Assembly (NCBI GenBank): GCA_038244815.1
Contig: JBBRTB010000001.1
Span: forward strand, 40,099 to 104,098
Reading direction: 5' to 3'
Origin: Thermoanaerobaculia bacterium
Lineage (GTDB): Bacteria > Acidobacteriota > Thermoanaerobaculia > Gp7-AA8
Length of the DNA: 64,000 nucleotides
Part shown: piece after piece, positions 20,135-40,909 of the stretch
Layout: every line of letters begins with the position of its first letter
Numbering within the stretch: the first letter of the stretch is position 1
Position numbers and translations under genes: made by a program
Notes under the pieces: generated by a model
Seen by the model: the letters and a program-made list of their open reading frames with translations, nothing else
Databases searched by the model: none
Told to the model about the DNA's origin: nothing

Positions 20135-20398
20135 GTGGGCATCGCGCTGTGGCTGCTGTGCGGAGTGACCGTCTTCGCGATCGCGCGATGGGTTCCCGCT
20201 GGCCGGCCATCCGGCTTCGGGCGCGAGCTGATCGTGGCGCTCGTGGTCTCGTTCGCCGCGGGACTAGGCGCCTCGTTGCTCGACTTCGGCGGCTGGGCGG
20301 AGCTCGACTGGCGCGCCGGCGTATTCGTGACGGCCTGCTCGTTCGCGGCGATCGGGTTCAGCCGGTCGATCGCTCTGGCAAAGCGGAGCGCGGCCTGA
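20135..20398 (+). CDS. GlsB/YeaQ/YmgE-family small membrane protein
   Basis: GIALWLLCGVTVFAIARWVPAGRPSGFG...LGASLLDFGGW pattern matches Transgly_assoc family; GTG start inferred. Confidence 0.5.
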   Translation: MGIALWLLCGVTVFAIARWVPAGRPSGFGRELIVALVVSFAAGLGASLLDFGGWAELDWRAGVFVTACSFAAIGFSRSIALAKRSAA

Positions 20399-21291
20399 GA
20401 TCCATCCGCGCCGCGGCCACGATCCTGCTCGTCGCACTCAACAGTCTCTTCTGGGGGATTCCGATCACGATCCTCGGACTGGTGAAGGTGGTGATGCCCA
20501 CAGCGGCGGCGCGGCGGCGCATCCGCACCGCTCTGACGGACCTCGGTTCGCGATGGAGCGGCACGAACAACCGCATCTTCGACGCCATGGTCAGGACGCG
20601 ATGGGACATCCGCGGCGTGGAGGGCCTGCGGCCTGAGGGTCACTATCTGATTCTCAGCAACCACGTGTCGTGGCTGGACATCTTCGTGCTGTTCCGCGCC
20701 TTCCACCGGCGCGTGGCATTCATGCGCTTTTTTCTCAAGCGGGAGCTGATCTGGTTTCCGATCATCGGACTGGCCTGCTGGGCCATGGATTTTCCGTTCA
20801 TGCGCCGTTACAGCCCCGCGTATCTGGCCCGCCATCCTGAAAAGCGCGGCCGCGATCTCGAGGCCACCCGCCGAACCTGCCGCCGCTATCGCAGGATCCC
20901 CGTGGCCATCCTCAATTTTCTGGAGGGGACGCGCTTCTCCGGGGAGAAGCACGCCGATCAGGATTCGCCGTATCGGAATCTGCTGCGGCCCCGGGTGGGA
21001 GGGACGGCGTTCGTGCTGGCGTCGCTCGGCGAGCAACTCGACGCCATCGTCGACGTCACCATCGTCTATCCCCGCCAGGACGTGACGCTGTGGGAGTTCC
21101 TCACCGGCCGCATCGAGGCCATCGTCGTACGGGCCCGGGTGCTGGAGGTGCCGCCGGAGTTCGTCAGCGCCGCCATTACCGAGCCCGGCCCGGCCCGGGA
21201 GAGGTTCCGGGAATGGATCGATGAGCTCTGGCTGGAGAAGGACGCTCTTGTCGAGGAGTTGCGTACCGTGATACCTTCGTACCATGGTTGA
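20188..21291 (+). CDS. PlsC/YihG-like lysophospholipid acyltransferase (start unresolved: 20188 ATG or as late as GTG 20482)
   Basis: HX4D motif (NHVSWLD), EGTR motif, N-terminal TM helix (ILLVALNSLFWGIPITILGLV) argues the start lies upstream of 20404; Arg-rich N-term from 20149 looks spurious. Confidence 0.7.
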   Translation: MGSRWPAIRLRARADRGARGLVRRGTRRLVARLRRLGGARLARRRIRDGLLVRGDRVQPVDRSGKAERGLRSIRAAATILLVALNSLFWGIPITILGLVKVVMPTAAARRRIRTALTDLGSRWSGTNNRIFDAMVRTRWDIRGVEGLRPEGHYLILSNHVSWLDIFVLFRAFHRRVAFMRFFLKRELIWFPIIGLACWAMDFPFMRRYSPAYLARHPEKRGRDLEATRRTCRRYRRIPVAILNFLEGTRFSGEKHADQDSPYRNLLRPRVGGTAFVLASLGEQLDAIVDVTIVYPRQDVTLWEFLTGRIEAIVVRARVLEVPPEFVSAAITEPGPARERFREWIDELWLEKDALVEELRTVIPSYHG

Positions 21292-21547
21292 AGCGAAATA
21301 CGAGATCGAGCGCGTGCAGACCGGCGTGCGCATCGAGAAGCGCATCCTCAAGGTCCTCAAAGGTCTGGCCGAATATCACGACATGTCCCTGGGCGACCTC
21401 CTGGAAGGCATCGTCCTGCACGCCTTCGAGGGCAAGGCTCCCTTCGGCAAGGAGAGCATCCGCAAGATCGGCGAGCTCCGGAAGGTCTATCACCTCGATC
21501 TCGGTGCCGCCGCCAGCCACAAACTCATCGAGCGCAAGCGGACATGA
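21284..21547 (+). CDS. small ribbon-helix-helix-like (CopG/Arc/MetJ-type) protein
   Basis: Beta-strand/helix pattern VRIEKRILKVLKGLAEYHDMSLGDLLEGIV; ATG overlaps acyltransferase stop (ATGGTTGA). Confidence 0.4.
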   Translation: MVEAKYEIERVQTGVRIEKRILKVLKGLAEYHDMSLGDLLEGIVLHAFEGKAPFGKESIRKIGELRKVYHLDLGAAASHKLIERKRT

Positions 21548-21738
21548 ACGATCGCGAGTTCGTTGCCGCCTCCGAGAGCACGACGCTGCCCGAGCTCCAT
21601 CACCGCGACCACGTTCGCGCCGCGTGGTGCTACCTCACCTGGCGCCCTTCGATTCTCGATCGGCTGTACCGGCCCGACACGATCCGCTCGGCGCGGGCGC
21701 GATGCTCGTTCGTGCTTCCCGACGCCGCCCGGGCGTGA
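21544..21738 (+). CDS. small hypothetical protein (64 aa), translationally coupled to upstream RHH-like gene
   Basis: ATGA overlap; no recognisable domain. Confidence 0.25.
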   Translation: MNDREFVAASESTTLPELHHRDHVRAAWCYLTWRPSILDRLYRPDTIRSARARCSFVLPDAARA

Positions 21739-21751
21739 CAGTCTCTGCCAT

Positions 21752-21791
21752 CTACGAAGATTTTCGTTGACGATACGAAACCCTTCGTATA
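21752..21791. promoter_or_regulatory. two adjacent dyad operators (ACGAA-N4-TTCGT and ATACGAA-ACCC-TTCGTAT) upstream of blaI-like gene
   Basis: Perfect 7-bp inverted repeat with 4-bp spacer 40 bp upstream of ATG; GGAGGA RBS follows. Confidence 0.4.
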
Positions 21792-21831
21792 GCTTCTCCG
21801 TATCGAGACTGAGAAGCGGAGGACTGGCAAG

Positions 21832-22218
21832 ATGACCGAGGCGATCCCGAGACCCACCGACGCGGAACTGACGATCCTCAGAGTGCTGTGGGAGCGAGGG
21901 CCGAGCACCGTGCGCGAGGTACATGATGCCCTGAGCTCGACTCAGGCCACGGGCTACACGACCGTTCTCAAGCTCATGCAGATCATGACCGAGAAGGGTC
22001 TGGTGGTCCGCGACGAGTCGGAGCGCGCGCACGTGTACGAGGCCAGTCACACCGAGCAACGCATGCAGCGGCACATCGTGGCCGACCTCGTCGAGCGGGC
22101 CTTCGGCGGATCGCCCGCGAAGCTGGTCCTCCAGGCACTGTCAGCACGCAAAGCGTCGCCGGCAGAGCTCAACGAAATCCGCGAACTTCTCGACAGACTG
22201 GAAGGAGACAAGCGATGA
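21832..22218 (+). CDS. BlaI/MecI/CopY-family transcriptional repressor
   Basis: wHTH (LTILRVLWERGPSTVREVHDAL...YTTVLKLMQIMTEKGLV) and C-terminal dimerisation helix typical of penicillinase repressors. Confidence 0.85.
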   Translation: MTEAIPRPTDAELTILRVLWERGPSTVREVHDALSSTQATGYTTVLKLMQIMTEKGLVVRDESERAHVYEASHTEQRMQRHIVADLVERAFGGSPAKLVLQALSARKASPAELNEIRELLDRLEGDKR

Positions 22219-24047
22219 ATACAGCCGATCTTCTAGGTGGACCGCTGGGTCATGCCGTCGGCCTGGCACTTCTGCACGCACTCTGGCAGGGCACGATCGT
22301 GGCCATCGTTCTCGCGGCCATCCTCACTCTTTCCAGCCGTCGCAGCGCGGCATTCCGCTACGGTCTGTCCTGCGCGGCACTGGCCATCGTGTTTGCTCTG
22401 GCCGTGATCACGGGCGTGCGCTCGTACAACCCGGGACCGGCCGTCACCGCGTCGCCGGCGGTGACCGCGGTCGCCGACGCATCGGCGGTCGATGACGCCG
22501 TCCTCATCGCGGCCAGCAGCACTCCCCGGTCGTGGCACGACACCTGGCTCGCCACGATTTCCACGCTTCTCGCGCACATCCCGCAGATCGTGGTCCTCTG
22601 GTTCCTGGGAGTGCTCGTGCTGACGCTTCGGCTGGCGGCGAGCTGGACGCGCACGCGCGCGCTGGCCACTCGAGGAGCGGTCACGGCGGACGAAACATGG
22701 CAACTCATGGCCGCGCGTCTCTCGCAGGCGCTGGGGTTGCGCAGGCCGGTGCGGCTCGTCGTGTCCGGCGGCGTGGACGTGCCCAGTGTGGTGGGATGGC
22801 TCAAGCCCGCCATTCTCCTGCCGGTGAGCAGTCTGACCGGCCTGACCTCCGAACAACTGGAGATGGTGCTCGCCCACGAGGTCGCGCACATCCGCCGTCA
22901 CGATTTTCTGATCAACGCGATGCAGTCGGTGGTGGAGACTCTGCTCTTCTACCATCCGGCGGTGTGGTGGCTGTCGCGACAGATCCGCATCGAGCGCGAG
23001 AACTGCTGCGACGATCTGGCGGTGTCGGTGTGCGGCGACGCCATCCTCTACGCCCGTGCCCTGGCGCAGCTCGAAGAACTGCGAACCTCACCGCTGCTGG
23101 CGATCGCGGCGAACGGCGGATCGCTGCTCGACCGTGTGCGGCGCCTCGTCGGCGCACACAGCGACCGGTCGCTCTTCTCCAGCGGCTGGACCGCCGCCGC
23201 GGCCATGGCCAGCTTCGTGGCCTTGCTCACGCTGACCACGGCGCCGATCCTCGCCGAGCGCCAGACCCCTCCGCCAGCGCCGCCAGCGAAGCCCGCGGTC
23301 GCACACGTGGATGTGCGCGCGCCGAAGCCTGCCACGGAGCCGACGCCGGAGCCCGACGAACTGGATGTGGACGTCGACGCGGTGGTTCCCGTTCCTGCCC
23401 TGCCGCCGGAGCCACCAGAACCGCCTGACCTCAGCGTCGTGCTTTCCAGCGTCGCGCCACGCGTCAGAGTGAGACCACGCGCGCTTCAGAGCCCCGTCCG
23501 GCACGGCTACATGGTTGCACCGACAGCACAAGCCGTCGTCGAGGGAGTCACCGGCGCGCTCGTGTGGGACGTCGACAACGAGGACCAGAGCTCCTCGCCC
23601 ACGCCTCCCGGGAAGCTGTCGGTCGACGAGCTGATCGCGCTGCGCGTACAGGGTGTGACGCCCGAATACATCCAGGAGATGCGCTCGATCGGATTCGGCA
23701 AGCTCTCCATCCGCGAGATCATCGCGCTGCGCAGCCAGGGCATCACCCCCGACGAGATCGGCAAGATGCGCTCCACGGGACTGGGCGATCTGAGCGCGCA
23801 CGACATCGTCGCTCTTCACGTTCAGGGTGTCACTCCCGATTACATCAGCGCGATGCGCACCGCGGGTGTGAACATCAAAACGGCCAACGAAGCCGTTTCG
23901 CTTCGCGTGCAGGGCGTGACGGTCGACTTCGTCCGCTCTCTCGCAGTGGCGGGCTATGAGCACCTCACCGTCCACGATCTGGTGCGTCTGGCCACATCGG
24001 GGGTCAATGCCGACTTCGTCCGGGAGATGTCGAAGTACAAGAAGTAG
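22215..24047 (+). CDS. BlaR1/MecR1-like M56 peptidase-family membrane sensor with C-terminal 29-aa tandem-repeat domain instead of a penicillin-binding domain
   Basis: 4 TM + HEVAHIRRHD zinc motif (M56); Pro-rich linker; 5 tandem repeats L..(E/D)(L/I)(I/V)ALR.QGVTP(D/E)(Y/F)I..MR..G; overlaps blaI stop. Confidence 0.8.
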   Translation: MNTADLLGGPLGHAVGLALLHALWQGTIVAIVLAAILTLSSRRSAAFRYGLSCAALAIVFALAVITGVRSYNPGPAVTASPAVTAVADASAVDDAVLIAASSTPRSWHDTWLATISTLLAHIPQIVVLWFLGVLVLTLRLAASWTRTRALATRGAVTADETWQLMAARLSQALGLRRPVRLVVSGGVDVPSVVGWLKPAILLPVSSLTGLTSEQLEMVLAHEVAHIRRHDFLINAMQSVVETLLFYHPAVWWLSRQIRIERENCCDDLAVSVCGDAILYARALAQLEELRTSPLLAIAANGGSLLDRVRRLVGAHSDRSLFSSGWTAAAAMASFVALLTLTTAPILAERQTPPPAPPAKPAVAHVDVRAPKPATEPTPEPDELDVDVDAVVPVPALPPEPPEPPDLSVVLSSVAPRVRVRPRALQSPVRHGYMVAPTAQAVVEGVTGALVWDVDNEDQSSSPTPPGKLSVDELIALRVQGVTPEYIQEMRSIGFGKLSIREIIALRSQGITPDEIGKMRSTGLGDLSAHDIVALHVQGVTPDYISAMRTAGVNIKTANEAVSLRVQGVTVDFVRSLAVAGYEHLTVHDLVRLATSGVNADFVREMSKYKK

Positions 24048-24056
24048 GAGATCACC

Positions 24057-24773
24057 ATGAAACGACTTCTTGCGGCGGCGCTGCTCTTCGCACTGGTGGC
24101 GTCGCCGGTCATGGCCTCCGACATTCACGGAGCGTGGACGATGACGCCGGGCGACCAGCCCGACAGGATCTACCTGTCCATGACCACGGGTGGGTGGCAC
24201 CAGTTCGGCCGCTCATTCACGCCTGAGTCGATGGGCGTTCGCTCATCGGACCTGTGGGCCACGACCACCACTCCGGTCAGCCTGAAGCTCGACCGCGACG
24301 CGGGTACGCTGGTTCTCGAAGGGACGTTCCGGAACGGAGATGGCGCCAGACAGTTCACGTTCGCTCCGAGCGGAACCTACGCTGCCGCTCTTCGTGCGAT
24401 GGGGCTGACCATCGATCTGCCGGACGACCGGTCGATCGAGGACGAGCTCTTCACGCTGGCCATCGTCGAGGTATCGCTGGATTACGTCCGCACGATGCGC
24501 GGGATCTTCCCCGAAGCCACGCTGCGCGACATGCGCAGGGCGCGCGGAGTGAACGTCACCCCCGAGTCGGTCAACTCTCTCCGTCAGGCCGGTCTCGCGC
24601 TCGACAGTCTCCGTTCCGCGGTCCGGCTCGTGGCGGTGGGAGCGACGGCCGACTACATCCGCTCGCTCCGCGCGGCCGGCGCGGGCTACACGAATCTGAG
24701 CACGCGCGATCTGGTTCAACTGGCAGCGGCCGGCGTCGACGCCCGATTCATCCGCAGCATGTCGAAACAATAG
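24057..24773 (+). CDS. secreted protein: N-terminal DIHGAWT domain plus C-terminal repeats of the same 29-aa type as the BlaR1-like sensor
   Basis: Signal peptide; shares repeat (ADYIRSLRAAG..L...DLV) and C-terminal ...ARFIRSMSKQ with neighbours. Confidence 0.7.
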   Translation: MKRLLAAALLFALVASPVMASDIHGAWTMTPGDQPDRIYLSMTTGGWHQFGRSFTPESMGVRSSDLWATTTTPVSLKLDRDAGTLVLEGTFRNGDGARQFTFAPSGTYAAALRAMGLTIDLPDDRSIEDELFTLAIVEVSLDYVRTMRGIFPEATLRDMRRARGVNVTPESVNSLRQAGLALDSLRSAVRLVAVGATADYIRSLRAAGAGYTNLSTRDLVQLAAAGVDARFIRSMSKQ

Positions 24774-24782
24774 GAGATCACC

Positions 24783-25745
24783 GTGAAAAGACTGTTCATG
24801 CTGTTTGGGATCTGCGCCCTGCTGGCATCCGCCGCCGCTGCCGACATCCATGGTGCCTGGACGGCCGAGGTCAGCGACGGCCCGCGGCTCCAGATGAACA
24901 TGACCTCGCGGAACAACCACAGCAGCTTCGGCCACACCATGACCGTGGACGAGTTCACCGGCCTATCCGATGCCGCGCTCCACGCGGCCACGCAGACAGC
25001 GGCGACGTTCTCGCTCAGCCGCGAAGCGGGAACCGTCTCGTTCGAGGGGACATTCAAGGATGGCTTCGGGGCCGGACAGTTCACGTTCAGGCCGAATCCT
25101 CAGTACCTGGCCTCTCTTCGCGGCATGGGCGTCAACTTCGAAGAGAGCGGCCGCGACAACGACCAGATGCTCACCATGACCATGACGGACGTCTCGTCGT
25201 CGTTCATCCGCTCCATGCAGGCGGAGGGCTATCGGGTCTCCGCCGACAAATACCTCTCCTTCCGGATCTTCGGCGTCACCCCGGAGCTGGTGCGGGAGCT
25301 GCGCTCGCTCGGCTATGACAGGATCGAGGCCGATGACCTCGTGGCCACCCGCATTCACAAAGTCACTCCCGACTACATCCGCTCCATGCGTGCCGCCGGG
25401 TATCCGAACCTGACGCTCGACGATCTCGTGGCCACCCGCATTCACAAGGCCACCCCGGAGTTTCTCGACCAGATGCGATCGCTCGGCTACTCCAGTCTCG
25501 ACTTCGACGATGCCATCGCATTCCGGATCCATCGCGTGACCCCCGAGTTCATCCACGATCTTCGCGATCTCGGTTACACGAACGTGCCGGCCGACGAGCT
25601 CGTGGCCATGCGCATCCACAACGTCACCCCACAGTTCATCCGGGAGTTGAAAGAGGCCGGCTACGAGAACATCCCGGTCGAGAAACTCGTGAGCATGCGC
25701 ATCCACGGCATCGACGCGAACTTCGTGCGGAAGATGAATCGCTAG
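24783..25745 (+). CDS. secreted paralog of 24057-24773 with ~7 tandem repeats (DDLVATRIHKVTPDYIRSMRAAGYPNLTL)
   Basis: Signal peptide; N-terminal domain alignable to upstream paralog (DIHGAWT...GQFTF.P); highly regular 29-aa repeats. Confidence 0.7.
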   Translation: MKRLFMLFGICALLASAAAADIHGAWTAEVSDGPRLQMNMTSRNNHSSFGHTMTVDEFTGLSDAALHAATQTAATFSLSREAGTVSFEGTFKDGFGAGQFTFRPNPQYLASLRGMGVNFEESGRDNDQMLTMTMTDVSSSFIRSMQAEGYRVSADKYLSFRIFGVTPELVRELRSLGYDRIEADDLVATRIHKVTPDYIRSMRAAGYPNLTLDDLVATRIHKATPEFLDQMRSLGYSSLDFDDAIAFRIHRVTPEFIHDLRDLGYTNVPADELVAMRIHNVTPQFIRELKEAGYENIPVEKLVSMRIHGIDANFVRKMNR

Positions 25746-25760
25746 CGCTAGCTGTGCGTC

Positions 25761-25827
25761 CTGGGGCCTCGGGCCTCGGGCCTCGGATTACGGCTGAGTT
25801 GCACCCAGCACCCAGCACCGAGCACCC
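25761..25827. repeat. tandem heptamer repeats (GGCCTCG)x3 and (CACCCAG)x3 in convergent intergenic spacer
   Basis: Direct reading; first block is the reverse complement of the GAGGCCC heptamer found inside imuB/dnaE2. Confidence 0.5.
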
Positions 25828-26840
25828 TACCAGTGCTTGACCGCTCGTCTCTTGCCGGCGCGGGACGGCTGCCACCCGAGCTGCACTACCTCGAAGTCGG
25901 AAGCCTTCAGCGCGGCGAAGGCCGGATTGAGAATGTCGTTGTCCCAGCTCGTGTCGTACGTGCCGCTCACATAGAGGTCGCTTCCGTTGTCGGCGACGAT
26001 GAGGCCGTAGGTCTTCATGGCCTGGAAGATCCGCCGGAGCGGATCGGAAAACGACGAGAGATCTTTCGATCCCTTGAGTCGCAGCCGTGCGCCCATCGGC
26101 AACGCGCCGGCGGTCTCGCCAGCGCGATGCGACCCGGGAAAGACGTAGCCGTTGGTGCGGCTCACCGTCACGCGGAAGGCGTGGCGGATGGGATCGGAGC
26201 CGTAGACCTCGTCGTAGCGCACGAGACCGGGCAGGATGGCCAGGCCGGCGGCATCGGCGCTCGTCCATCCGTCCGGCCGTCGCGCGTTGGAGTCGAGCTG
26301 AAACACGGCACCCGATCCCGCTTCCCATTGCGAGCCGTTCCAGCTCAGGGCGTAGAGCTCGAAGAGGATGCGGTTGTCGCGGTCGACGATGAGCATGTGA
26401 CGGTCGCCATCCGCGTTCGGATCGCCGCCGGCCAGGCCTCCCTCGATCCACTTCTGCTGAGTCTTCGCTTCCTCCGGAATCGGATAGCCCGGCGGCCTCC
26501 CGGGTGCGCCGCTGTCACTCTCGTCGTCGTACTCGAACGTCACCGGAACGAGCGGCTGTGAACCGGAGACGACGATGTAGGGCATCCCGTAGATCGGGGA
26601 CGAGGAGTCGCCGTCTGCCCCGAAGTCGGGGTGCATCCCTCGCGTCAGACCGATGAAGGCGATGAACGCGGCGCTGTTCGGGTCGGCCGGCGCGGCGCTG
26701 ATGTCGGTGTTCCACCAGTTCCCGGGAGGAAACAGCGGAAGCGGAGCGGGCAGCGCGCCGCCTGGCACGGGCGCCTGACCCAGCGCGGCCGAGGCAACCA
26801 GGCAGCCGAGGAGCGCGAGCGTGGTGTGCACTCGCTTCAT
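25827..26840 (-). CDS. secreted hypothetical protein (337 aa)
   Basis: Signal peptide; no family recognised; last gene of a 3-gene minus-strand operon. Confidence 0.6.
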   Translation of the reverse strand: MKRVHTTLALLGCLVASAALGQAPVPGGALPAPLPLFPPGNWWNTDISAAPADPNSAAFIAFIGLTRGMHPDFGADGDSSSPIYGMPYIVVSGSQPLVPVTFEYDDESDSGAPGRPPGYPIPEEAKTQQKWIEGGLAGGDPNADGDRHMLIVDRDNRILFELYALSWNGSQWEAGSGAVFQLDSNARRPDGWTSADAAGLAILPGLVRYDEVYGSDPIRHAFRVTVSRTNGYVFPGSHRAGETAGALPMGARLRLKGSKDLSSFSDPLRRIFQAMKTYGLIVADNGSDLYVSGTYDTSWDNDILNPAFAALKASDFEVVQLGWQPSRAGKRRAVKHW

Positions 26841-38629: not shown

Positions 38630-40909
38630 ATGACCTCACGCGCAGCGGATCGGCGCGATCTCTGGTGCATGGCGCTTCTCGTGGGCATCGCAACAGTCTT
38701 TTTCTCGGACGTGCTCTTCGCCGGTAGCAACTTCTACTACCGCGATCTGTTCATCTACCACTTCCCGATGAAACACATTGTCCGGGAGGCGATGATCAGC
38801 GGCGAATTCCCATTCTGGAACCGCTTTTACTCGAACGGCCAGCCCCTCGCTGCCAATCCTGCGTATGAGCTCTTTTATCCACCGCAGTGGCTGATTCTCA
38901 CCGGCTCGTACACCTTCGGGTTCGCTCTTCACATCCTCTTTCATGTCTACGCTGCCCTCGTCGGAACATTTCTCCTGTTGCGGACGATGACGCTCGGCCG
39001 CGCCGCGGCAACCTTCGGGGCACTCTCGTTCGGCATGGGCGGCTTCCTTCTCGGATCCATGACGATGCTGCCGACATTTTTCGTCTGGGCGCTCGCACCC
39101 CTGGTGGGATGGAGCATCGTTCGGGCGTTGTGCGCACCGGGCCCTTCGACCGTCGCGGTGGCGGCTCTTCTGGCGGGTGTGCAATTGATCATCGCCGAGC
39201 CGATGGCCATCCTGCAGGTGTGGCTGCTGATCGCGGTGTGCGTGCTGGTATTCGCTCGCCGCCAAACGGGCGTCCTGGCCGCGATCGGCGGGGCAGCGAT
39301 GCTCGTGGCCGCCGTTTTGATCGTTCCGGCGATCGACCACGCCCGGGACTCCGCTCGGTCGCGTGGGATCGCCTTCAACGTCGTTCGGCAGTATTCGCTG
39401 CCGCCCTCTCGCCCGCTGGAGATGGCCATTCCACACCTCTACGGTGTTCTCGACCCGTTCGCCGCTGCGTATTGGGGGGCGGCGGCCTTCGATCGTGGCG
39501 CGCCATATCTCTCCAGCCTTTACAACGGCATCGCCGTGGCCATTCTCGTCCTGGCCGGACTGATTCTTCGCGCACGGGGCTCGTTAACCGTCGTGGTGCT
39601 GAGCCTCATCTCTTATCTGCTGGCCATCGGCGATCGCACCCCGTTACTACGGGCCCTGTACGACGCCGGAATCGCGCGGGGCATTCGTTACCCCGAAAAG
39701 TTCGCCGCCCTCGCCGTCGTCACGATGACGTTCTTCGCAGCATCCATCGCTGACCGCCTGCTCTCAGGAGATGAGAAGGCGCGCCGGTCCGCGATCGCGG
39801 CGGGACTGATCATCTTCCTGATCAGCGTCGTGCCTCTGTTCTTTGCGCGATCACTCGGCCAGCCAAGGCTGGAAGCTCTGGCGCGGAGAGAGTGGCTGAT
39901 CGGACTGGCCTTCGCTGCCGCGGCCACGTTACTCCTGGCCGCTCTTCCGCGCGTCCCCCGACGGGCCTGGCTGCTGGTGGCATTCGCGGTGGTGCTGCTC
40001 GACCTCGTCCTCGTCGACAGTGAGCTCGTCACGCGCATGCCCAGGTCATTCTTCACGCCACCAGCCGTCGTGGCCGGCTTCGAGGCCGATCGAAACGACT
40101 ATGAAGTCATGCATCGCGGCGAATGGAACGCGGAGGATCCGAACTATCACGCGCTGCGCGCCGCCTTCGGCCCGTGGTTCTCGCGCAATGGACTGCAGCC
40201 ATTCTCACTCGACGCCTGGGGAGTGCGCAGCGCGCTCGAGCTGGACTTCGACGAGACAGCACTTCTCCCAACTCACGATCTGCTCGATGCGATGATGAAG
40301 GTCGGCAACCGAGGATTTGCGCACTGGGCGGAATCGTTCGCAGCGATCTCGAATGTGCGTTATCTGGTCGACTATCTTCCACTTGCCAATGTGCTCTCGC
40401 AGCATGGGCCGGTCGAGCAGGCCCGAATGGTTCGCCTGACGCATCTCCCTTCGACAGGGCGCTACTACTTTCCGCAGCAGATCGTGCATGCCCTGACCCC
40501 GGACGATGTCGTCGCATTCATCGAGAGAACCGGCATCCAGCGGCCGGTCGCGTTCGTGCCGTTCGTCCCGCCAACACCGGCACGGGCGCAAGTGCTGAAT
40601 GTGAGCGAGCGTGCAAACGGTGCCACGATCGACGTCATATGCGAGGAGAGGGCACTTCTCGTGGCCACGGTCACACGCCACAAGTACTGGCACGCAACGA
40701 TCGATGGAAAGCCGGCGCCGCTGCTTCCGGTGAACATCGCCTATCAGGGATTGATGGTGCCGGCCGGCCGCCACCGAGTGGAGATGCGTTATCGCAACCC
40801 GCTCGTCATCGCGGGGGGGATGGTGACCGTGCTGAGCGTCGCGGCGTGCGCAGCCGTGATCGCTACTGCTCCGACACGACCACGCCATCGCCCTCGAAGC
40901 GGATCTTGA
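38630..40909 (+). CDS. YfhO-like large polytopic membrane protein (putative lipid-linked glycosyltransferase)
   Basis: N-terminal ~12 TM region, large C-terminal extracytoplasmic domain and terminal TM, as in the YfhO family. Confidence 0.5.
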   Translation: MTSRAADRRDLWCMALLVGIATVFFSDVLFAGSNFYYRDLFIYHFPMKHIVREAMISGEFPFWNRFYSNGQPLAANPAYELFYPPQWLILTGSYTFGFALHILFHVYAALVGTFLLLRTMTLGRAAATFGALSFGMGGFLLGSMTMLPTFFVWALAPLVGWSIVRALCAPGPSTVAVAALLAGVQLIIAEPMAILQVWLLIAVCVLVFARRQTGVLAAIGGAAMLVAAVLIVPAIDHARDSARSRGIAFNVVRQYSLPPSRPLEMAIPHLYGVLDPFAAAYWGAAAFDRGAPYLSSLYNGIAVAILVLAGLILRARGSLTVVVLSLISYLLAIGDRTPLLRALYDAGIARGIRYPEKFAALAVVTMTFFAASIADRLLSGDEKARRSAIAAGLIIFLISVVPLFFARSLGQPRLEALARREWLIGLAFAAAATLLLAALPRVPRRAWLLVAFAVVLLDLVLVDSELVTRMPRSFFTPPAVVAGFEADRNDYEVMHRGEWNAEDPNYHALRAAFGPWFSRNGLQPFSLDAWGVRSALELDFDETALLPTHDLLDAMMKVGNRGFAHWAESFAAISNVRYLVDYLPLANVLSQHGPVEQARMVRLTHLPSTGRYYFPQQIVHALTPDDVVAFIERTGIQRPVAFVPFVPPTPARAQVLNVSERANGATIDVICEERALLVATVTRHKYWHATIDGKPAPLLPVNIAYQGLMVPAGRHRVEMRYRNPLVIAGGMVTVLSVAACAAVIATAPTRPRHRPRSGS

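Follow-up and report, generated by a model that had tools for sequence, protein, structure and literature searches.

Introduction

In the BlaI/BlaR1 and MecI/MecR1 systems of Staphylococcus aureus and Bacillus licheniformis, a repressor gene of family PF03965 stands beside a membrane protease of family PF05569 (M56), palindromic operators overlap the promoter, and the repressor is cleaved by the sensor protease. Here we analyze a locus of the same general layout in a Thermoanaerobaculia bacterium of the phylum Acidobacteriota (assembly GCA_038244815.1, contig JBBRTB010000001.1, forward-strand positions 40,099 to 104,098): four genes encoding a BlaI-like repressor, an M56 membrane protease and two signal-peptide proteins termed S1 and S2, within a stretch of 64,000 nucleotides (nt) that was analyzed as a whole and is called the window below. 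The locus resembles the described systems in the adjacency of the two genes, in the intact HExxH motif and BlaR1 fold of the protease, and in palindromic operators that overlap the likely promoter, and by analogy its sensor protease would be expected to cleave the repressor. It differs from BlaR1 and MecR1 in that the M56 protein carries a tether and helical repeats of 29 amino acids (aa) and no penicillin-binding domain, in that a separate soluble protein would make up part of the sensor module, in that no beta-lactamase or penicillin-binding protein gene is linked to it, and in that the N-F cleavage site of the repressor is aligned with Q-A. Judged from its sequence, the locus belongs to the BlaI and M56 families and is not a beta-lactam sensor of the BlaR1/MecR1 type.

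The absence of a recognizable sensor domain in an M56 protein is not unusual, because M56 proteins without a recognizable C-terminal domain represent the commonest M56 architecture (PMC13492132). True beta-lactam sensors with a penicillin-binding domain account for about 6% of M56 proteins, 96% of M56 proteins are encoded near a BlaI gene, and what the remaining M56/BlaR-like proteins sense is an open question (PMC13492132). Several atypical BlaIR pairs likewise combine M56 and BlaI and do not sense beta-lactams: CenIR of Clostridioides difficile, PetR/PetP of Synechocystis (a pair for copper; 10.1101/2020.07.31.226407), BlaIR of Mycobacterium tuberculosis and M. abscessus, and PvmSR of Pseudomonas aeruginosa (10.64898/2026.08.03.742534). 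The ectodomains of these proteins are short, disordered or absent, whereas the ectodomain described here is large, confidently folded, widely conserved (4,123 sequence clusters) and found in both fused and split forms.

By examining the proteins of the locus, the distribution of their repeats and the gene neighborhoods of their relatives, we hypothesize, with about even confidence, that the locus is an autoregulated proteolytic signaling operon of the BlaI/BlaR type with a two-piece periplasmic sensor, in which S1 and S2 would serve as co-receptor. New here are an undescribed ectodomain module that is large and well folded, the existence of this module in both a fused and a split form, and a sharply conserved operator and promoter design.

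An M56 protease with a repeat ectodomain

All four open reading frames (ORFs) were found where the initial annotation had placed them, on the forward strand: blaI at 21832-22218, the M56 gene at 22215-24047, S1 at 24057-24773 and S2 at 24783-25745, which together make one tightly coupled operon. The stop codon of blaI overlaps the M56 start by 4 nt in an ATGA at 22215-22218, and the M56/S1 and S1/S2 junctions are identical, each consisting of the 12-nt TAGGAGATCACC followed by ATG (S1) or GTG (S2); these identical junctions indicate translational coupling and a tandem duplication. Judged from the ATGA overlap and the duplicated junctions, blaI, M56, S1 and S2 are a single transcription and translation unit. 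The public gene call for S2 starts at an internal ATG (24798) and gives a protein of 315 aa. The presence of TAGGAGATCACC before the GTG at 24783, the same as at the S1 junction, supports the GTG as the start of S2; this start restores the MKR... N-terminus of the family, and the resulting 320-aa form is more likely to be correct than the shorter call.

The M56 protein (610 aa) begins with a membrane zinc-protease domain of the BlaR1 type (aa 1-347, positions 22215-23255; PF05569, E 2e-33) that ends in the last transmembrane helix (aa 324-347). Its HEVAHIRRHD motif lies at nt 22875-22904, and H221, E222, H225 and E241 are invariant across 44 homologs, so that the protein shows the features of its family, namely PF05569 with HExxH and a downstream Glu ligand beside a gene of the BlaI family. 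In an AlphaFold2 model built from the same number of homologs (44), the predicted local distance difference test score (pLDDT) is about 80-95 in the membrane and protease part, and a Foldseek search with the model gave S. aureus BlaR1 (8EXQ/8EXP) as the best fold matches in the PDB, with probability 1.0. The domain is followed by a Pro-rich acidic linker (aa 348-465, positions 23256-23609) that is predicted to be disordered (pLDDT mostly below 50); 27 of the 125 residues at aa 341-465 are Pro, the pI is 4.5, and no beta domain was detected in the linker. The periplasmic end of the protein consists of five tandem 29-aa two-helix repeats (aa 467-610; positions 23613-24047 with the stop codon), modeled as an all-helical tail with a regular helix-turn-helix pattern and pLDDT above 90.

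Searches of the M56 protein for a penicillin-binding, transpeptidase or class D-like sensor domain gave no PF00905 or beta-lactamase match, and among NCBIfam models blaR1_generic reached 75 bits against a cut-off of 400, while sensor_BlaR1 and sensor_MecR1 stayed far below their cut-off of 1200. The M56 protein thus has an intact BlaR1-like zinc-protease domain, a disordered tether and five repeats that replace the penicillin-binding domain. Both family and fold matches uphold the initial annotation in its description of a BlaI and M56 module lacking a penicillin-binding domain, and the Pro-rich linker leading to five repeats of about 29 aa was likewise read correctly.

The repeat module in S1 and S2

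S1 (238 aa) consists of a signal peptide, a small N-terminal beta domain (ND) and four or five degenerate repeats, only the last two of which score well. In an AlphaFold2 model from 29 homologs (pLDDT 91, predicted TM-score 0.79), the signal peptide of S2 (aa 1 to about 20) is followed by an ND of six strands at aa 22-104 and, from about aa 122 to aa 320, by seven two-helix repeats of 29 aa, the first of them degenerate. The two proteins are 38% identical over the N-terminal domain and the repeats (E 7e-36), in agreement with the earlier description of them as signal-peptide paralogs that share both parts; the roughly seven repeats first counted in S2 are there, and the three counted in S1 give way to four or five degenerate ones. 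The C-terminus of the M56 protein aligns with the last five repeats of S2 without gaps (37% identity over 141 aa, E 5e-36), and with S1 at E 8e-20, a likeness that chance does not explain. An MSK ending had been thought common to all three proteins, but only M56 (...FVREMSKYKK) and S1 (...FIRSMSKQ) have it, and S2 ends in ...FVRKMNR. No tandem repeats or 87-bp periodicity are left in the repeat region at the DNA level, and the repeats are therefore ancient.

Soluble and tethered arrays differ: the soluble protein has a constant 6-7 repeats with a strict R-I-H-G-V-T-P core, whereas tethered M56 arrays have 2-11 repeats with looser conservation. The soluble ND-repeat protein is under strong purifying selection and has a fixed architecture. 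The conserved His of the repeat is replaced by Gln or Val in repeats of the M56 type, and cysteines are lacking. For these reasons we do not claim metal sensing through the repeat His, for which a structural role is equally likely; the TPLH motif of ankyrin repeats offers a parallel for such a role.

The initial annotation had proposed that the repeat be compared with domain libraries and its structure predicted. The first comparison yielded no matching Pfam, NCBIfam or PDB family, and the second gave confident two-helix repeats both in S2 and in the M56 tail. With Pfam and NCBIfam, the repeat zones of the window proteins had only short, single-stretch matches below threshold. Among homologs, DUF3744, HTH_39, HTH_91, HHH_5, TPR_23 and a few others passed their cut-offs only by the summing of short stretches and were judged spurious, while Decapeptide and Glycos_trans_3N stayed below their own cut-offs; all of these were rejected as repeat-summed noise. 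Sequence and profile searches of the PDB with the repeats returned de novo designed repeat proteins or nothing, a Foldseek search with the S2 model gave no match at E<=1e-3, and no profile or fold match placed the repeats among the TPR, Sel1, HEAT, PPR, TALE, mTERF or ankyrin families. The superhelical repeats of TALE, BurrH and mTERF, built of two or three helices, nevertheless count among the closest described systems. Neither the repeat nor the ND beta domain has an equivalent in Pfam, NCBIfam or the PDB.

Distribution among bacteria

Homologs of S2 number 1,941 in a set of 5.8 billion proteins; all are unnamed or labeled 'hypothetical', and the named sources are Thermoanaerobaculia and metagenome-assembled genomes of Acidobacteria. 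A scan of one genome per GTDB species confirmed 536 stretches, mostly in Thermoanaerobaculia and other Acidobacteriota, with a few in Eisenbacteria, Verrucomicrobiia and Methylomirabilota. When a 58-position profile of the repeat was searched against 1.84 billion representatives of clusters at 50% identity, it matched 4,123 clusters at E<=1e-3 and 1,053 at E<=1e-30; the 4,123 are mostly M56 proteins of Acidobacteriota, largely uncultured ones from soil.

Among the best 148 of the 4,123 clusters, 62 are M56 proteins with repeats only, 53 have the order M56-ND-repeats, 25 are short soluble ND-repeat proteins and the remainder are fragments. In the fused proteins the ND stands between the membrane domain and the repeats, an order that does not result from read-through of the split form and therefore argues against an artifact. 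Some fused proteins have N-termini that we take, from reading their sequences, to be Bacteroidota-like; five of these are M56 proteins by Pfam. As judged by these profile matches, the repeat module is overwhelmingly a BlaR-type sensor ectodomain.

The repeats themselves fall into two types. A profile of the soluble type outscores a profile of the M56 type in 96% of the 53 fused proteins and in all 25 soluble ones, as compared with 24% of the 62 M56 proteins with repeats only. By this scoring, fused sensors carry repeats of the same type as the soluble proteins, and the repeats of split M56 proteins form a type of their own.

Fused and split forms

Gene neighborhoods were surveyed at 80 genome loci and in the window; 68 of these have at least 2.6 kb of upstream sequence. 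A BlaI gene and a repeat-bearing M56 gene lie directly upstream on the same strand in 52 of the 68, and where the flank is short, any truncated upstream ORF that is visible ends in repeats. Selection bias was countered with 80 metagenome loci fetched by M56 motifs alone. In this second set, an M56 protein that has repeats and no ND is followed directly by a separate ND-repeat gene at all 33 informative loci. Fused M56-ND-repeat proteins, by contrast, have no downstream ND-repeat gene in any of ten cases, made up of four from the same set and six looked up individually; around the latter six no other ORF with ND or repeats is found nearby, and the fused operons hold blaI and the sensor only. 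In the relatives surveyed, the ND-repeat module is thus either fused to M56 or encoded by a separate gene after a repeat-only M56 gene, and never both.

This mutual exclusion, an argument of the Rosetta-stone type, suggests that the M56 protein without an ND and the soluble ND-repeat protein act as partners, and that the latter corresponds to the detached ectodomain of the single-chain sensor. The soluble type of the repeats in fused sensors supports the same reading of S1 and S2 as the detached half of the sensor. Of the two arrangements suggested by the initial annotation, a decoy and a co-sensor, the fused/split pattern favors the co-sensor and does not prove it.

At the other 16 of the 68 genome loci (24%), termed orphans, the operator is missing and neither a BlaI nor an M56 gene lies within 8 kb on the same strand; these loci belong to the more distant matches (38-54% identity). 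The initial annotation had held that secreted paralogs commonly found without M56 partners would speak against its proposal, and the two sets of linked loci keep the proposal standing, although the orphans take some of its force away. Orphan copies would also be expected if the repeats were structural elements, such as a periplasm-spanning stalk or an envelope anchor (for example one that binds the cell wall), with S1 and S2 derived from a duplication of the sensor tail and their adjacency merely historical; the variable number of M56 repeats behind a long Pro-rich tether would suit a stalk as well. History alone, however, does not predict an adjacency that is kept in different classes of Acidobacteriota as well as in several other phyla and that complements the fused form, nor does a structural origin sit easily with the strong purifying selection and fixed architecture of the soluble protein, and we regard such a role as quite improbable.

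Loci L062-L068 and L073-L079 represent a distant ND-repeat sub-family (38-41% identity to S2) with no same-strand BlaI or M56 gene within 8 kb and no operator. At L067 and L073 the ND-repeat gene directly follows a gene for a large membrane protein, which we take from its sequence to resemble ABC permeases of the MacB/FtsX type.

The repressor and its putative operators

The blaI gene encodes a winged-helix repressor of 128 aa. Its match to PF03965 (E 3e-28) covers positions 2-114 of the 115 in the profile, and the nearest solved structures are 2G9W, the BlaI of M. tuberculosis (E 6.5e-12), and 1SD4, that of S. aureus (E 3.7e-5). The repressor has the N-terminal winged helix and C-terminal dimerization helices of the BlaI/MecI/CopY family and, by sequence, putative palindromic operators at its own promoter. 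The C-terminal CxCxxxxCxC metal site of CopY is absent from this protein, which contains no cysteine, and the corresponding model TIGR02698 reaches 45 bits against a cut-off of 122. Models of defense systems in PADLOC gave weak winged-helix cross-matches for BlaI only and none for S1 or S2.

Two operator dyads lie upstream of blaI on the forward strand, both of the form TACGAA-N4-TTCGT(A/T). The right arm of dyad 1, TACGAAgattTTCGTT (21753-21768), overlaps a -35-like hexamer, TTGACG (21767-21772); dyad 2, TACGAAacccTTCGTA (21774-21789), has perfectly palindromic arms and fills the 17-nt spacer from TTGACG to a -10-like hexamer, TAGCTT (21790-21795). We infer that TTGACG and TAGCTT form the blaI promoter, which would be occluded by BlaI bound at the dyads. 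The two dyads, noticed in the initial annotation, stand up well: a search for TACGAA-N4-TTCGTA with at most one mismatch finds them as the sole two matches in the 64-kb window and finds none in 100 shuffles. Of 54 related genome loci, 51 have the core CGAA-N4-TTCG ahead of blaI, and among all genome and metagenome loci fetched there are 57 places with both dyads. The spacing between dyad centers is 21-23 nt in 60 of 63 adjacent pairs, with TAnnnT at a fixed distance after them, such that the design of the relatives reads CTACGAA-N4-TTCGTTGAC, 2-5 nt, TACGAA-N4-TTCGTA and then TAnnnT, in a TTGAC / TAnnnT frame. Outside blaI promoters, neither the window nor about 1 Mb of related loci contains a further copy of the operator.

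A further element is found in the interval from the putative -10 to the ribosome-binding site of blaI, where an inverted repeat GCTTCTC...GAGAAGC followed by GGAGG occupies 21792-21817 (forward strand). In the corresponding stretch of about 30 related loci, CCTC(C/T)C pairs with the GGAGG Shine-Dalgarno sequence and the flanks co-vary, and the loop always holds CGTA, which is half an operator arm. The inverted repeat could be a leader hairpin that sequesters the Shine-Dalgarno sequence, or it could be a third site of protein binding. Should transcription start about 7 nt past TAGCTT, the 5' arm of the repeat may be untranscribed.

The regulatory layout also bears on what S1 and S2 do. They are the sole non-regulatory genes behind the operators, with no further operator copy in the window, as would be expected if the M56 repeats sense a signal and S1 and S2 are the induced output that binds, sequesters or neutralizes the same molecule, giving protection and negative feedback. 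Such a role would also agree with the well-folded repeat array that M56 retains, with the orphan ND-repeat genes, which imply a binding function that is autonomous of M56, and with the duplication of the gene, since an S1-like second gene occurs in 10 of the 81 sequences surveyed and duplications are frequent for effectors. Its logic has parallels: the BlaR1 sensor domain is related to class D beta-lactamases and BlaR1 induces BlaZ or PBP2a, and RsgI anti-sigma factors have carbohydrate-binding ectodomains that resemble those of the enzymes they control. The fused M56-ND-repeat operons, however, contain no such effector in ten of ten cases; the soluble type of the fused-sensor repeats makes the soluble protein correspond to the sensor ectodomain itself; and the tethered repeats, less conserved and variable in number, are unlike a specific ligand site. 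An induced decoy or effector of this kind is the main alternative, possible in our view but doubtful.

A proposed two-piece sensor

In the two-piece sensor that we prefer, BlaI would bind the two dyads and repress its own operon. The soluble ND-repeat proteins S1 and S2 would be the detached ligand-binding half of the sensor and would dock on the tethered repeat array of M56, probably by repeat-to-repeat contact. A periplasmic signal would alter this contact and switch the cytoplasmic zinc protease, which would then cleave BlaI and de-repress the operon. With S1 and S2 encoded within the operon, their level would feed back on the sensor, with either sign.

Among described systems, sensors that depend on a soluble periplasmic partner include LuxP-LuxQ, TorT-TorS, ChvE-VirA and ExoR acting on ExoS, the last with a helical-repeat partner under feedback control. 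The likeness lies in a membrane sensor whose signal would be delivered or gated by a soluble protein of the periplasm. The differences are that LuxQ, TorS, VirA and ExoS are histidine kinases and not proteases, and that their partners are not homologous to the sensor ectodomain; we know of no fused-versus-split series for any of these pairs.

The evidence for a co-sensor would apply equally to a version of it in which the sign is specified: S1 and S2 would keep the protease inactive by binding to the M56 repeats until envelope stress, or proteolysis of the soluble proteins, removes them. An inhibitor encoded within the operon that it shuts down is typical of homeostatic circuits, and ExoR (a periplasmic Sel1-repeat protein) acting on ExoS/ChvI, and CpxP acting on CpxA, are parallels. 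The covalent attachment of the module in fused relatives, however, means that it cannot be titrated away, the soluble proteins give no evidence of a protease site or of instability, and nothing separates inhibition from activation, so that we consider this version improbable.

Several observations weigh against the two-piece sensor. M56 keeps repeats of its own and could bind the signal without help, and the position of S1 and S2 as the only non-regulatory genes under the operators would also be predicted if they were induced effectors. Repeat numbers of M56 and its neighbor are uncorrelated (rho -0.06), with no sign of lengthwise pairing. Orphan ND-repeat genes imply that the soluble protein can function alone. 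With regard to the regulatory steps, a generic promoter scan did not flag the hexamers at the dyads, and the N101-F102 cleavage site of the S. aureus type is absent from the repressor, where 'slvlNFak' is aligned with 'klvlQAls' (N-F to Q-A). The helix around this site (FGGS...LVL) is conserved in BlaI, and the N-F site is not universal among the BlaI family.

A broader form of the proposal, that the ND and the 29-aa repeats constitute a new family of periplasmic ligand-binding folds whose split form is a diffusible co-receptor docking through its repeats on those of a membrane-tethered protease, is put forward tentatively, with somewhat less than even confidence.

Neighboring genes

Just 5' of the operators, at 21544-21738 (forward strand), lies a 64-aa ORF that looks like what is left of a conserved protein of 133 aa after an internal deletion; about 28 related loci carry the intact protein at this position (for example L032, 1337-1738). 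The putative remnant retains the N-terminal FV...TLP...HR(D/N)HVR.AW.YL and the C-terminal R.SFVLPD, and the middle is gone. Upstream of it, at 21284-21547 (forward strand), an 87-aa ORF overlaps the stop of an acyltransferase-like gene (20149-21291). This small ORF has conserved counterparts in 28 related loci (MVEAKYEIERVQTGVRIEKRILKVLK...) and is probably a real gene.

Downstream, a 7-bp tandem repeat (CCTCGGG, 3.9 copies) lies at 25760-25786 (forward strand), 15 nt past the S2 stop, in the gap before a convergent gene, and no canonical terminator was detected after S2. The convergent gene (25827-26840, reverse strand) encodes a signal-peptide protein of 337 aa and is conserved there in 16 related loci; in other sub-clades a convergent gene of about 1,040 aa takes its place. 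Both of these convergent genes are placed outside the unit because neither is conserved across the whole family. Conserved neighbors were rejected as clues to function, since the upstream synteny (the acyltransferase and two small ORFs) and the downstream genes vary between sub-clades; such synteny looks like shared ancestry and not membership of the unit.

Significance

The locus defines one large, coherent subgroup of the M56/BlaR-like proteins that lack a penicillin-binding domain. It offers experimental handles in the operator, which can be used for reporters, and in the soluble protein, which is fit for ligand screening and crystallography, and it makes a genetic prediction, namely that the separate ND-repeat gene is needed only when the sensor has no beta domain. 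If the broader proposal is true, the mechanism can be tested directly on the fused and split versions that occur in nature. The pathway would then be the first 'binding-protein-dependent' one of the BlaR type (regulated proteolysis), and it would be widespread among the Acidobacteriota of soil and occur in several other phyla as well. If S1 and S2 do act as co-receptors, they would represent a new mode of input for signaling by regulated proteolysis.

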